64,000 nucleotides of DNA from an uncultured Lentisphaerales bacterium (GTDB lineage: Bacteria; Verrucomicrobiota; Lentisphaeria; JABSQK01; UBA12247): positions 32,001-96,000 of the forward strand of contig CALSSJ010000021.1 of NCBI GenBank assembly GCA_943788985.1. The letters are read 5' to 3'. Of the stretch, positions 21,001-24,000 are shown in pieces. Made by a program: the position numbers. Positions within the stretch are counted from its first letter, which is position 1; each line of letters begins with the position of its first letter.

Positions 21001-24000
21001 CAGTACGCATCCCAATGCTCGGCGCTGCCGACTCCCTGAATGTAGCGACAGCTGCGACCTTGATGGTCTACGAGGTGGTCCGCCAGAGAATGGCACAAGC
21101 TTGATTCGTACCGCGTGCAGCGTGAAAGTGCCATCCGGTGCTACCTGAACCGAGCCCCGTTGATGAAGACGCGACGGGCGTCGTCTAAGGGCGGCTGGCC
21201 GTGGAGGAGGAGTGCAACGAAGAAAAGAAGGATGGAACCACTAAATTTCACTAATCTTCACTAACTCCAGGGTCTGGGGTTGAGCGTGTTTTGTTCATTG
21301 TGGCTAGTGGTTCGGATTCTCTTCGGGGGCAGGATGGGCAGCAGGCGCCAGTTTGTTCATTAGTGTGGATTAGTGAAAATTAGTGGTTTGCTCTTCTTTT
21401 CTCTTTGCCGCTCAACCATTAGTCGCTGACATATCGTTTCCATTCCAGCTTGCTAGGATTACCAAAGTTGATCAGGTAGCCCACTGGCTTGCCGGTCGCT
21501 TTGAGGTAGTTCAGGATCTGGGCGGCTTCGACCTTGGAGAGGGCTTTCAATGCTTTCAGTTCGACAACAATTCCATCGCTCACATAGAGATCCGGCCGAT
21601 ACCGCTTCTGCAACTCCTGGCCCTTATACACGATCCGCAACTGCGGCTGGGACTCAAAATCGATCTGTCGGCTGCGAAGCTCCAATTCCAAGGCCTCTTG
21701 ATAGACATCTTCAAGGAAACCCGGCCCCAAGGTATTGTAAACCTCGAATGCCGCCGCCATCAGATCATAGCCCTCTTGCTCATACGCCATAAAAATTAGT
21801 GCCAATTAGTGAAAATTAGTGGTTCGTATTCTGGCTGTAAGCAGGCCGTGAAGGGGGAGCAGGAAGAAGAGAAGAAAATGGAACCACTAATTTTCACTAA
21901 TCTTCACTAATGAATCAATCCACATATATCAGGCCCTTCTTACATTAGTGAAGATTAGTGAAAATTAGTGGTTCGCATTCTGGCTGTGGCTGGCTGTGGC
22001 TGGCTGTGAAGGTGGAGTAGGAAGAGTTTGATAAGTCGAGGCAGCGTAAATGTTCCAGTGGAATACCCTAAGAATGTTAGATCTGCCGTGACATTCAGCC
22101 AGCAGCCCTATCCTTAATTGCCTCCGGCTGTTTGCCAGTGGATATACCTATTCCTTCACTGGGGCGCGAAGCGTGCGGTCGACTGGCCATGGGGCGCCTT
22201 CGGCGATCCACTGCTTAATCAGGGCGCTTTCCTCGGCCCTAAGGGGCTCGCCCTTAGCGGGCATGATGTCGTCGTGGTCGGCGTCGAGAATGGTCAGCAG
22301 ATACAGTGGGCTTTCGTCGGGCTTGCCCGGCACGAGTACGGCATCGAAATCGGGGCCCCGGTCGAGGGCAAAGCGCGTGTGCATGCTGAGGTCGCCCTTG
22401 TCCTTCTCAGGATTGTGGCACTGGAGGCAGCGGCGTTCGAGAAGCGGGGCGATGTCACGGTCAAAATTCACCGTAGCTTGTTCGACGGCTTCGGCCGGTT
22501 CTGAATCCTTTCGCTGGCTTGTGGCGGCAGGCTGTTTCTCCATGACGGCAGCCACGGGCGATGTCTTGACGGCAACGGGTCTGGGCGGTGGCCGCATCAG
22601 ATCGACGCAAAATTTGATGGCAACTGCGAGTAGGATGAGCAGCATGGCCTCGGCAAAGCGCCAGGTCCCGCTCGCTGCAGGCTGCGCCTTGAGCGCCGGC
22701 ATGGCTGGCTTCGGTGCCGCAGACTTTCGGCGTGACTTTAGGACTGTTCTCTTTGCGGTTTTTGCCTTATCGATCTTGTCCACGGCGGTGGGAGGGGCCT
22801 CTTCCGCTACCTCGTACCAGATGTCCTCCCCCTCGTAACCGAGCTGAAAGCGCTCGCTGGGCGCAATCCCGTAGGGGCCAGCGATCTTGTGGGTGTCGAT
22901 GTAGACGCCATTGGTAGAGGCTAGGTCATCGACGAAGATTCTTCCAGAACGTAGAAATATAGTGGCATGGTGCGAGGAAGCGCTAGCGATGCCCACCGTC
23001 AGAGTAGCAGCCTGGTCACGCCCGATTGTGGCGCGATCTTTGCTAAGATCTACAGTGACCTTGGCCCCGCTACCGGCTACTAGCTCGACAATCAAAACAG
23101 CGCGAGAACCGGCTTGCCGCCATTGGCGATGGTGAAGGGGCGACCAGACTTGGAATACAGTTCATGGGCAGGATCGATGCCGACCGCATGCGCGATAGTC
23201 GCGTTAAGATCTTTGACGCTAACGACCTTTTCTGCCACCGTCGCACCTCGTGAGTCGGTCGCACCGTAGACCTGCCCGCCCTGTACTCCGCCGCCTGCAA
23301 GCATGCAGGAAAAGGCCTTCGGATGGTGCCCCCGCCCATTGCCATCGTTAATCTCAGGGGTGCGGCCAAACTCACTTACTAGTACAACGAGGGTGTCTTC
23401 GAGCATGCGACGGCGGTGCAGGTCGTCCAAAAGCGTGCCGAGACCGGCGTCGAGTTGCTGGAGTTGCTTCTCGAGCCGCTCGAAGTTGTCGGTGTGCGTG
23501 TCCCAGCCGCCAAAGGTGACCTCGACAAATTTGATGCCATGCTCGACGAGTCGACGCGCAAGCAGGCAGCCCTGGCCAAAGTTATTCTTGCCATAGCGTT
23601 CGCGGAGGTTCTTGGGCTCACGGGCAATGTCAAACGCTTTGAGCTCGCTGGATTTCATGAGCTTCACGGCATCTTCGTAGGCCTGGGCGTACCCGTCCAC
23701 CTGGCGACTCTCGAAGCGGGAGTCGAACTTTGTGTTCAGGGTGCGAAGCAGCTGCATGCGATGCTCGAAGGTCCCTTCGTCCACGTGTGGCGGCGGCGAG
23801 ATGTTACTGAGGCCGGCTTCTGCGCGACTGATGCGCAGTGGTTCAAACTCTGGCTCGAAGAAGCCAGCGCCGATCGGATTACGAGCCCCAATATTGATGT
23901 TTCCCGGTAAGGTCTCGCTGTTCTTCCCAGAGAGTTTGAGCGCCCAGGCCCCCGAGTCCCGGATGCTGAATGGTGCCGAGCATTGGATAGCTGGTGCGCA

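Follow-up and report, generated by a model that had tools for sequence, protein, structure and literature searches.

We find that a gene for a small predicted nuclease of the GxxExxY family, in an uncultured Lentisphaerales bacterium, is surrounded by inverted arrays of a phased 7-nt word, and that most of its relatives are bracketed in a similar manner. Gene and arms form a unit, as the arms accompany the protein lineage where it turns up at unrelated gene junctions. These cassettes sit at junctions of ordinary genes, mostly sense-oriented within operons, where over evolutionary time they are gained, lost, replaced and reduced to ORF-less hairpins; resident cassettes are then inherited vertically for long periods. 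Comparison of orthologous loci indicates that the arm sequences and the protein are both under purifying selection. The explanation that we favor, with somewhat better than even confidence in the whole including its mechanism, is a selfish mini-cassette of 0.45–0.8 kb, in which a nuclease ORF lies between two inverted arrays, each of three phased 7-nt words. The class is apparently widespread and undescribed.

The focal gene and its arms

All positions given here are those of the analyzed window, a stretch of 64,000 nucleotides whose position 1 is position 32,001 of contig C21, and the arms and the gene are read in gene (minus-strand) orientation. The gene (21419–21790, minus strand) encodes a protein of 123 amino acids, which was assigned by profile, conservation, structure model and Foldseek. 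The protein exceeds the curated cut-offs of both TIGR04256 (GxxExxY protein, NCBIfam; E 6.7e-42, 142.5 bits against a cut-off of 35, profile positions 4–116 of 116) and PF13366 (PDDEXK_3; E 1e-42, 145.6 bits against a cut-off of 22, profile positions 3–116 of 117), the latter being its sole Pfam match. Its motif residues are G24-x-x-E27-x-x-Y30, D67, E77-x-K79 and Q91-x-x-x-Y95; among 73 sequences of the family, none departs from E27, D67, Q91 or Y95, and conservation of E77 and K79 is 90% or higher. The structure model (pLDDT 95.6) has the order of helices and strands expected for an alpha-beta-beta-beta-alpha-beta core, and its top Foldseek matches are Cas4 SSO0001 (4ic1), lambda exonuclease and Hjc (E 2.9e-5 to 1e-3), in alignments that cover about 60% of the model with a TM of 0.6 normalized to the query. 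On this model and these motifs, which have the features of the superfamily, we predict a minimal Cas4/RecB-like PD-(D/E)XK nuclease. A homodimer prediction (score 0.00, mark 0.42) speaks neither for nor against a dimer. A sequence search of solved structures gave nothing meaningful, its single match (E 0.071) being to an unrelated designed protein, and no family in PADLOC or PHROGs matches the protein.

Five arms surround the gene, all on the minus strand, each consisting of three CACTAAT words at 10-nt spacing. The first, L1 (21943–21974), is 32 nt long and 100% complementary to R1 (21881–21912), from which it is separated by 30 nt; R1 is followed by a pyrimidine-rich 3′ extension (21857–21880). 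This complete hairpin lies 55 nt from the gene's own left arm, L2 (21795–21825), the final CACTAA word of which ends 5 nt upstream of the ATG. L2 and L1 have in common a 44-nt stretch, 5′ flank included, at 91% identity. On the other side of the gene, L3 (21360–21388, or 21356–21413 with its purine-rich 5′ extension) begins about 30 nt past the stop codon, and R2 (21235–21264, or 21215–21264 with its pyrimidine-rich 3′ extension) begins 95 nt after L3. L2 is 87% complementary to R2 across 30 nt, and between the extended forms of R1 (58 nt) and L3 the complementarity is 81%. A degenerate extra left arm, L4 (about 21288–21320, minus strand), which was read by eye and by repeat comparison, sits within the L3–R2 spacer and still has its first word, preceded by a 5′ flank like that of L1 and L2. 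Directly upstream of L1, on the same strand, is a short tandem repeat with a 10-nt period (21977–22012; C21:53977–54012).

The genome-wide survey's note on this locus had described three phased words ending 5 nt before the ATG, a second left arm 33 nt past the stop codon with a right arm about 100 nt further on, and a complete copy of the hairpin about 60 nt further upstream. Each of these elements is present in the sequence, as L2, L3, R2 and L1–R1. The gene had also been placed inside a split hairpin, which is too simple; the focal copy is composite and atypical, with two complete hairpins (L1–R1 and L3–R2) flanking the ORF and a duplicated left arm, L2, abutting the ATG.

The element lies between two genes that are outside it: upstream, a gene for a protein with FHA and Planctomycete cytochrome c domains (22148–23095, minus strand), and downstream, a convergent gene for a SpoU-type rRNA methylase (20661–21104, plus strand). 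We found no orthologous empty site for this locus, and the insertion boundaries could not be set, since the query's matches in genomes from its order were confined to the SpoU part. A scan for terminators gave one terminator-like site (21262–21282, plus strand), a number within expectation. Three other likenesses were set aside: microRNA-precursor matches of the upstream hairpin to plant and animal families in Rfam (35 bits against gathering scores of 90–230), which we read as generic hairpin shape; a likeness of the arm flanks to the tRNA T-arm, into which no stem fits; and CsrA-type GGA sites, which fit CACGGA words only.

The CACTAA word is under-represented in this genome (478 occurrences on both strands of 4,582,059 bases, or 4.58 Mb, at 58% GC), and all 10 phased CACTAA pairs fall within C21:53239–53970, which is the focal locus. 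Exact CACTAAT arrays occur nowhere else, and the idea that identical CACTAAT hairpins form a REP family scattered over this genome was dropped. Elsewhere in the genome there are 14 arms of CACTGAT words, at least 8 of which have no partner within 450 nt; relatives combine CACTAAT and CACTGAT inside one arm, and from these sequences we infer that the two belong to one word class. We also compared the 170 nt upstream of every ORF of at least 90 amino acids (3939 ORFs) with the reverse complement of the 170 nt downstream. In this independent test the focal locus again ranks first, as it had in the survey, with a score of 22.5 (99.9th percentile, 16.5); the ORF scored there is a longer antisense ORF at the same place. 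Its two paralogs rank 17 (on C18) and 323 (on C12).

Relatives and the history of gene junctions

The layout of left arm, GxxExxY ORF and right arm, which the survey had reported for relatives, is near-universal among them. Of 79 loci, 74 have both flanks, and 52 of these 74 have inverted flanks at a score of at least 14, compared to 1 of 67 control positions shifted by 500 nt; when miscalled starts are allowed for, the count is 60 of 74 (again versus 1 of 67). The loci include some from cultured strains, namely Rubritalea tangerina KCTC 12907 (L044), Haloferula rosea KCTC 22201 (L063) and Oceaniferula spumae NT6N (L082). The geometry is tight in 44 of the 74, and in tight cassettes the median distance is 9 nt from left arm to ATG and 8.5 nt from stop codon to right arm. 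The left arm often terminates in a Shine-Dalgarno-like purine run, which is mirrored where the right arm begins. Most cassettes (46/61) are co-directional with both neighboring genes and few (5/61) are antiparallel to both, with gaps to the neighbors of about 47 nt (median) on either side. At one locus (L092), cassettes lie in accessory regions next to HipA-like and other accessory genes. Word types vary between lineages, as the survey had also noted, with CACTRAT in the focal lineage, and genomes may carry several GxxExxY paralogs, each with its own words.

The same bracket is found around a second family of small ORFs, the four-helix-bundle genes (23S_rRNA_IVP, PF05635), of which 33 of 76 have the layout, compared to 0 of 68 controls. 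The style of the arms differs between the two families: among 48 GxxExxY arms analyzed, 22 of the 23 with a clear period have a period of 9 or 10 nt, but 52 of 55 four-helix-bundle arms are tandem repeats with a period of 7 nt.

Locus pairs with no flanking genes in common bear out that gene and arms go together: where the proteins are at least 80% identical, all 10 pairs have upstream arms that are alike (score of 14 or more), and the share is 35% at 70–80% identity, 30% at 60–70%, 6% at 55–60% and nil below 55%. The loci whose proteins are nearest to the focal one (L013, L014, L015, L017, L019 and L024) have CACTAAT/CACTGAT arms at other junctions in other PVC lineages. Across 13 orthologous loci, the mean pairwise identity of the two arm cores is 0.917 and 0.912, compared to 0.914 for codon position 2 and 0.481 for codon position 3. 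Because arm-core identity matches that of codon position 2 and arm style is family-specific, we take the arms to be functional at the level of sequence.

Two junctions record how cassettes come and go. In 24 genomes of one family, the atpA|atpG spacer is short (3–57 nt) in 14, holds an ORF-less stretch of 101–113 nt in 7, and is filled in 3, by a GxxExxY cassette in one genome and by a PF05635 cassette in two; at least 4 of the 7 ORF-less stretches are phased-word hairpins, with words other than those in the filled sites. At the junction of X and DUF3686, two loci (L218 and L237) have flanks that are 95% identical as protein but cassettes that are only 47% identical and have different words, and across 78 pairs the identity of cassettes does not correlate with that of their flanks (rho 0.08). 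Other loci at this junction are empty (L219, 58 nt), occupied by a Y1_Tnp gene instead (L221), or hold a decayed cassette of which the arms and a 3′ remnant of the ORF are left (L236); this last locus shows that an ORF-bearing hairpin can become ORF-less. In three genomes (G044, G109 and G141), ORF-less copies of the arms of the resident cassette (CACGGAA) are found elsewhere in the genome.

Movement is rare, since close homologs are syntenic: of 23 protein pairs at 90% identity or more, 18 have both flanks in common and 5 have one. Replacement at a junction could come from ordinary homologous recombination via the flanking genes. No target-site duplication is evident between filled sites and empty or differently filled ones, the closest empty sites having flank proteins of 76–81% identity, a divergence at which boundaries are not placeable to the base. 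No excision junction or allele lacking the cassette was found, and contigs from four runs contain no joint that skips it; breaks of contigs at the arms carry no meaning, because contigs from DNA and RNA libraries both break there.

The survey's note concluded that a second gene family rides in the loop of a phased-word hairpin. The four-helix-bundle genes bear out the shared layout, but not a hairpin that exists independently as a host or repeat element and into whose loop small naked ORFs of either family insert, which we consider improbable. Such hairpins would account for the abundance of ORF-less examples in the focal genome (37 arm matches compared to 11 in a reversed-sequence control), for the occurrence of ORF-less and filled hairpins in the same junctions, and for the complete empty hairpin with the same words beside the focal left arm (L1–R1). 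However, arm similarity follows protein identity across contexts, arm style is specific to the ORF family (9–10 versus 7 nt), the empty atpA|atpG hairpins carry words unlike those of the filled ones, and the decayed cassette of L236 documents the reverse direction, from ORF-bearing to ORF-less. Moreover, the moving part would have to be the bare ORF, because the arms of tight cassettes abut both ATG and stop codon.

RNA-level evidence and a proposed mechanism

The 781-nt RNA of the focal locus is predicted to fold at −263 kcal/mol, compared to −219.6 for shuffled sequences (z −5.95), with stems that enclose the ORF; in the minimum-free-energy fold, R2 is paired to L1 rather than to L2, and R1 to L3. 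Contigs from RNA libraries of two studies span ORF and arms, which is weak evidence, as contigs cannot show RNA ends. There is some compensatory change between arms: 21 cells are doubly changed, compared to 13.2 ± 2.8 in shuffles, and 4 of 500 shuffles attain the count of 21. There is no sense-strand bias in the arm mismatches of 52 loci (36 of G:U type, 31 of A:C type and 93 others), and since G:U is not in excess of A:C, these mismatches do not directly support an RNA stem under selection.

These data bear on the proposal that the arms form an RNA-level device around a domesticated host gene, that is, a stem that sequesters the ribosome binding site, is cut by RNase III or stabilizes the mRNA, and so controls a nuclease serving the host in, for example, repair or defense. 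The cassette would then have no movement of its own, and its patchy distribution would result from loss and flank recombination. We give this proposal a minor but real chance. It would fit the prevailing sense orientation, the Shine-Dalgarno-like end of the left arm and its mirror image in the right arm, the strong predicted stems, the partial compensation between arms and the synteny of close homologs; a gene useful to the host could likewise persist for long under purifying selection. Precedent comes from the RNase III cutting of rRNA intervening-sequence stems, as described in passages of PMC4990558. Mere pairing, however, does not need words conserved like codon position 2. The lack of an excess of G:U over A:C mismatches, the word periods specific to each ORF family, the many solo arms without a partner, the decoupling of cassette lineage from flank lineage at X|DUF3686, the occurrence of one cassette type in unrelated junctions and the lack of a PADLOC match for the protein also argue against it.

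For the selfish mini-cassette, we propose that transcription of the host operon includes the cassette and that the arms would pair as a long stem around the ORF, folding the insert out of the host transcript. RNase III would probably cut this stem, by analogy with the ORF-bearing intervening sequences of 23S rRNA. The phased words would be cis sites recognized by their sequence, most likely by the encoded nuclease, which may bind as a multimer along one helix face. The same words may be used in copying the cassette to new junctions, in a homing-like or transposition-like manner, and in mobilizing copies that have no ORF, the role proposed for RAYTs with respect to REPINs. The encoded nuclease cannot be a general requirement for the architecture, because the four-helix-bundle proteins, which are not nucleases, have the same layout.

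In type III toxin-antitoxin systems, repeat RNAs titrate or repress the toxin. A toxin-antitoxin-like or self-regulating module, in which the nuclease is titrated or repressed by the words, acting as RNA or operator DNA, and the cassette thereby becomes hard to lose, seems to us highly improbable. It is suggested by the short tandem repeats directly upstream of a nuclease gene, by long persistence under purifying selection and by the HipA-like genes beside the cassettes of L092. However, there are only three units of 10 nt and they are mirrored downstream, and the repeats of type III systems (ToxIN) are not known to be so mirrored. In addition, a promoter scan found no promoter-like site in the focal intergenic region (0 compared to 1.1 expected), PADLOC has no match, and ORF-less remnants and empty sites show that loss is tolerated.

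More tentatively, and with considerable doubt, we suggest a broader picture. GxxExxY proteins would be word-reading, hairpin-directed nucleases that drive a class of minimal autonomous mobile elements not recognized before, each made up of a single 120-aa ORF and inverted ends of phased words, on which the ORF-less hairpins would depend in the way of REPINs. These elements and the heptad-armed cassettes of the four-helix-bundle family would make up a single ‘intervening-sequence’ mobilome of rRNA helices and operon junctions in many phyla, in which the word code co-evolves with the protein in each lineage.

The GxxExxY and four-helix-bundle (‘23S rRNA IVS protein’) families are two very large families of tiny genes of unknown function, found in thousands of genomes. 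That both come as hairpin-bounded cassettes, with arms conserved like the proteins, provides a testable context for these genes, and many unexplained intergenic word-hairpins may be explained as relatives or remnants of cassettes. The puzzle of rRNA intervening sequences is also linked to a wider phenomenon in operons, including the junctions atpA|atpG, rmlB|rmlA and pairs of ABC ATPase genes. If the nuclease does read its own words, the many natural protein-word pairs would offer a collection of small proteins that bind nucleic acids sequence-specifically. In annotation, cassettes flag operon junctions that tolerate insertions.

Comparison with known systems

The four-helix-bundle family is known from the ORF-bearing intervening sequences of 23S rRNA in Coxiella, Leptospira and others (S23p, PF05635). 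According to passages in PMC4990558 and PMC11270868, these are about 430–460 nt long, with terminal inverted repeats that form a stem of about 28–30 bp and an ORF of about 120 amino acids in the loop; they are distributed sporadically, by horizontal gain followed by vertical inheritance, and have ORF-less versions at the same sites. As far as those passages describe them, the cassettes resemble them in size, in a stem with an ORF of about 120 amino acids, in sporadic gain with vertical inheritance and in ORF-less versions. Inverted arms around such an ORF are found at the focal locus, where stems in the predicted fold enclose the ORF, and in 60 of 74 relatives, and the intervening-sequence ORF family is itself bracketed alike at junctions of protein genes. 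There are also differences: the focal element lies between the FHA/cytochrome-domain and SpoU methylase genes rather than in a 23S rRNA helix (Rfam found no rRNA over 20900–22300), its ORF is a predicted PD-(D/E)XK nuclease instead of a four-helix bundle, and GxxExxY arms consist of three phased words that are conserved at the level of sequence.

RAYT genes, as portrayed in parts of PMC3337134, PMC5581495 and bioRxiv 10.1101/2021.07.10.451892, are single-copy and vertically inherited, and are flanked by an inverted palindromic repeat that is also scattered without the gene, the repeat type being matched to the gene lineage. Similarly, gene-less CACGGAA arm copies are dispersed in G044, G109 and G141; in the focal genome the exact CACTAAT arrays are confined to the locus and the 14 CACTGAT arms are dispersed. 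RAYTs are Y1 (HUH) tyrosine transposases, but the focal protein is PF13366, PD-(D/E)XK, and where X|DUF3686 does hold a true Y1_Tnp gene (L221), that gene is an occupant in its own right. The GxxExxY system differs further in having several paralogs per genome with their own words and ORF-less arms in tens, not hundreds.

With Cas4/RecB nucleases (SSO0001 Cas4, lambda exonuclease) the protein has in common the predicted fold and the catalytic E, D, ExK and QxxxY residues, but at 123 amino acids it is a bare catalytic core, and there is no CRISPR context at the focal locus. Cas4 carries a four-cysteine cluster; no such cluster is evident here, there being no conserved cysteine column in 73 sequences. 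MITEs and small insertion sequences are similar in their inverted ends, small size, ORF-less derivatives and intergenic insertion, but the cassettes have no target-site duplication that we could find, ends that are arrays of phased words, an ORF far smaller than known transposases and a strong sense bias within operons. An integron gene cassette would carry an attC hairpin with extrahelical bases, close to an integrase or a cassette array. Neither the upstream hairpin of the focal locus, a perfect palindrome of 32 nt without bulges, nor the single placement of cassettes in operons speaks for an integron, although no integrase was searched for.

The heptamer repeats of GGGNATC type in Xanthomonas and Nostoc (Rehm et al. 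2015, PMC4692102) are described in the abstract as G-quadruplex-forming simple repeats, transcribed and lying between co-oriented genes within 50 bp of stops and starts. They are similar to the 7-nt arms of four-helix-bundle cassettes, although the abstract says nothing of inverted pairs that enclose ORFs; they are contiguous, whereas GxxExxY arms are spaced words with a 9–10-nt period. In the literature on GxxExxY, PDDEXK_3 and the intervening-sequence four-helix bundle (S23p), we found no description of the flanks or of a cassette in a search of main texts; mentions of GxxExxY were incidental, and the function of PDDEXK_3 is given as ‘Unknown’. Our best reading, by analogy, is that the class would stand closest to rRNA intervening sequences and to REPIN/RAYT pairs, as a set of cassettes that come and go at gene junctions.

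A gene nested among phased-word arms

The best-supported account of the focal GxxExxY gene is that the ORF and its word arms form a small selfish cassette, carried in sense orientation within host operons. Around the ORF (window 21790-21419, minus strand; 123 aa) are five arms, each composed of three CACTAAT words at 10-nt spacing and starting with AACCAC; read in gene orientation they run L1, R1, L2, ORF, L3, a degenerate L4 and R2, all on the minus strand. L1 (21974-21943) and R1 (21912-21881) make a perfect 32-nt palindrome whose arms are 30 nt apart, and the last word of L2 (21825-21795) stops 5 nt upstream of the ATG. 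L3 (21388-21360) lies ∼30 nt downstream of the stop and is 90% complementary over 29 nt to R2 (21264-21235), from which 95 nt separate it; L4 lies at about 21320-21288. R2 is also complementary to L2 (87% over 30 nt), and R1 with its pyrimidine-rich tail to L3 with its purine-rich leader (81%, 58 nt). A 44-nt stretch including the 5′ flank is common to L1 and L2 (91%), as if L2 had been copied from L1. Directly 5′ of L1 are about 3.5 copies of a short tandem repeat of 10-nt period (window 21977-22012). What the focal locus contributes is a composite example, with two hairpins and one extra arm.

CACTAA is rare in the 4.58-Mb, 58% GC focal genome (478 occurrences on both strands), and all 10 phased CACTAA pairs in the whole genome fall within 750 nt at this locus. 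For 3939 ORFs of at least 90 aa, we compared the 170 nt that precede each ORF with the reverse complement of the 170 nt that follow it, and found that the focal locus ranks first, with a score of 22.5 against a 99.9th percentile of 16.5. The genome-wide survey's note had described a hairpin-bracketed gene here, a description confirmed by the confinement of the phased words to the locus and by its first rank for reverse-complementary flanks; its judgement that the paralogs on contigs C18 and C12 are poor examples agrees with their ranks of 17 and 323. There are 37 AACCAC-type arm-like matches in this genome compared to 11 in a reversed-sequence control, 14 of them CACTGAT arms, with hairpins at three to four loci and at least eight solo arms. 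On contig C15 (83588-83905), near-identical copies of a ∼100-nt hairpin lie on both sides of a four-helix-bundle (TIGR02436) reading frame interrupted by a TAA stop, which looks like a decaying cassette of this second family in a hairpin-gene-hairpin layout.

The focal protein scores 142.5 bits against NCBIfam TIGR04256 ‘GxxExxY protein’ (cut-off 35) and 145.6 bits against Pfam PF13366 PDDEXK_3. Among 73 sequences, conservation is complete or at least 90% at G24-x-x-E27-x-x-Y30, D67, E77-x-K79 and Q91-x-x-x-Y95, and the confident AlphaFold model (pLDDT 95.6) has as its nearest solved folds Cas4 SSO0001, lambda exonuclease, a restriction-endonuclease-like protein and Hjc resolvase. The conserved motif residues and this predicted fold make it very probable that the protein is an active nuclease, hardly more than a catalytic core. 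Nothing meaningful emerged when PDB, PADLOC and PHROGs were searched by sequence, and a table in the 2012 survey of PD-(D/E)XK families (PMC3424549) lists the function of PDDEXK_3 as ‘Unknown’ and its phylogeny as mixed-clade.

The 781-nt sense transcript of the region folds at -263 kcal/mol compared to -219.6 kcal/mol when shuffled (z -5.95). In the predicted fold of lowest energy, L1 is paired with R2 and R1 with L3, such that L2 and the ORF would be enclosed in a two-part stem; the local hairpins L1-R1 and L3-R2 are predicted alternatives. Three RNA libraries from two studies include contigs that cover the ORF and arms at a depth similar to that of neighbouring genes, but this is a weak hint of transcription because the data are contigs with possible DNA carry-over. 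No promoter-like site was found in the 1-kb intergenic region at the focal locus. The focal stretch was found in marine and estuary metagenome runs.

Conservation of the layout and of the words

The survey's note had also claimed an inverted-word bracket around the GxxExxY genes of relatives. We sampled 79 loci from the best 80 of 105 confirmed matches, 74 of them with 200 nt on both sides, and locally aligned each upstream flank with the reverse complement of the downstream flank, using flanks moved 500 nt outward as control. Inverted flanks (score ≥14) were found in 52/74 relatives and 1/67 shifted controls. Many of the 22 misses have a wrong called start codon that the left arm overlaps; with 60-nt slack, 60/74 relatives score at least 14 versus 1/67 controls (48 versus 1 at score 17, 40 versus 1 at score 20), and the claim holds. 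After random re-pairing of flanks between loci, 50/361 pairs still reach 14, because words are common to different loci.

The median distance is 9 nt from left-arm end to ATG and 8.5 nt from stop to right-arm start; both are at most 30 nt in 44/74 loci and looser in 16, and 14 loci show no repeat at the threshold score. A Shine-Dalgarno-like purine run often closes the left arm, with its mirror at the start of the right arm. As at the focal locus, complete hairpins occur on both sides of the gene at L093, L129, L130 and L134, among others. In two paralogous loci (L126 and L131, genomes G041 and G043) the repeated word contains ATG (CACGGATG type), so that the left arm runs across candidate start codons and where the ORF truly begins is ambiguous. 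Within an 18-kb accessory region (L092, G034:C48:22000-40000) lie a GxxExxY gene, a HipA-like gene accompanied by a small HTH gene, an AAA_14/DUF4143 ATPase and transposase-like ORFs; interspersed among them are solo phased-word arms (CACTAAT, CACTGAT, CACAGAT, CACGGAG), a recurring A/T-rich motif and, beside arms, long arrays of a ∼22-nt tandem repeat.

The arms are under selection as sequences. In alignment A1, of 13 orthologous loci that occupy a single junction, the mean pairwise identity of the arm cores is 0.917 and 0.912; that of codon positions 1, 2 and 3 is 0.828, 0.914 and 0.481, and that just past the right arm 0.510. Arm pairing is retained in 86% of cells, and cells changed in both arms are somewhat commoner than in shuffled data (21 versus 13.2 ± 2.8; 4/500 shuffles reach 21). 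On our reading, the words themselves are constrained beyond mere complementarity, a word-level constraint that points to a sequence-specific reader of the arms, which may act on DNA or RNA. Across 52 loci the arms form 1411 Watson-Crick pairs, and the mismatches (36 of G:U type, 31 of A:C type, 93 others) show no sense-strand bias; the absence of a G:U bias counts against the selfish-cassette account. We consider it unlikely that the arms instead form a stem that regulates a domesticated gene purely at the RNA level.

The arms belong to the gene rather than to the site. In locus pairs that have neither flanking gene in common, which are not mutually independent, upstream arms align (score ≥14) in 10/10 pairs at ≥80% protein identity, in 35% at 70-80%, 30% at 60-70%, 6% at 55-60% and 0% below 55%. 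The closest relatives of the focal protein (61-67% identity, among the best 80 of 105 matches) come from Victivallales, Kiritimatiellales, Chthoniobacter and other Verrucomicrobiota, and have CACTAAT or mixed CACTAAT/CACTGAT arms at quite different junctions. That bare ORFs were inserted into pre-existing hairpins is, against this co-inheritance, improbable.

Relatives of a PF05635 ORF of the four-helix-bundle family, taken from an atpA|atpG junction, are likewise bracketed in 33/76 loci compared to 0/68 controls; that a non-nuclease family has the identical layout is a further point against the selfish-cassette account. Arm periods are family-specific: 7-nt tandem repeats in 52/55 four-helix-bundle arms, and in GxxExxY arms (n = 48) 9 nt in 13, 10 nt in 9, 7 nt in 1 and mixed or unclear in 25. 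In both families the sense strand of the upstream arm is A-rich and purine-rich. Four-helix-bundle loci L137-L216 include the heptad types AAGGATG, GAATGCA and AATGACC, which resemble heptamer tandem repeats reported between co-oriented genes of Xanthomonas and Nostoc (PMC4692102); these heptamer repeats may themselves be arms, or else remnants, of four-helix-bundle cassettes.

Junctions and turnover

Cassette neighbours are ordinary operon partners: ATP synthase alpha and gamma (L052), two ABC ATPases (L036), dTDP-glucose dehydratase and thymidylyltransferase (L013), a lyase and HydF (L067), or an unnamed gene, X, and DUF3686 (L078, L055, L041, L051). Called neighbours lie within 600 nt on each side at 61 loci. 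Of these, in counts that orthologs inflate, 46 are co-directional with both neighbours, and arrangements antiparallel to both, convergent and divergent number five each. Median gene gaps are about 47 nt, essentially filled by arms. Close homologs are syntenic, with both flanks in common in 18 and one flank in 5 of the 23 pairs at ≥90% identity; this mostly vertical inheritance also weighs against a selfish cassette, as does the lack of a visible transposition footprint at the junctions compared.

Turnover is evident at two junctions that were each compared across a family. Among 24 genomes from the family of G041, the atpA|atpG spacer is 3-57 nt in 14 and an ORF-less 101-113 nt in 7; one site is filled by a GxxExxY cassette and two by PF05635 cassettes with heptad arms. 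At least four of the seven ORF-less spacers (L103, L109, L110, L114) consist of another word in inverted arrays, tandem 7-8-nt words of GTAGCGA type, in the style of four-helix-bundle cassettes and unlike GxxExxY arms.

At X|DUF3686 in the family of G044, L219 is empty (a 58-nt terminator-like spacer), and GxxExxY cassettes of at least five word types occur. The 183-nt intergenic remnant at L236 retains both word arms and the last ∼19 codons of a GxxExxY frame, assigned by eye against the family's C-terminal consensus; on this reading of its sequence it represents a transitional form between hairpins with an ORF and those without. L218 and L237 have flank proteins 95% identical and cassettes only 47% identical, with different words, and the difference spans the whole spacer from upstream stop codon to downstream start; cassette and flank identity are uncorrelated (rho 0.08, 78 pairs). 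Because a 149-aa Y1_Tnp gene (IS200-like, RAYT-like; L221:866-1315, minus strand) occupies this junction in place of the cassettes of related genomes, the junction is a landing place common to different small elements. Small GC-rich hairpins border that gene. In G044, G109 and G141, arms of the resident cassette are also present elsewhere as ORF-less copies.

A candidate mechanism and known systems

On the selfish-cassette account, long vertical inheritance is broken by occasional gain, replacement or loss, with decay into ORF-less hairpins. The arms would pair in the transcript and be processed in the manner of rRNA intervening sequences, and the phased words would be cis sites read by the encoded nuclease. 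A self-regulating module of toxin-antitoxin type, the remaining alternative, seems to us highly improbable.

The literature searched contained no description of GxxExxY flanks or of the cassette; added here are the sequence-level arm conservation, the arm periods specific to each family, the uncoupling of cassette from flank lineages and the decayed intermediate. The closest known kinds are ORF-bearing rRNA intervening sequences, in which a 28-bp stem of terminal inverted repeats cut by RNase III surrounds an S23p ORF (PMC4990558), and REPIN/RAYT pairs. The focal element differs from each in a defining feature, since it lies outside rRNA and is without a Y1 transposase.
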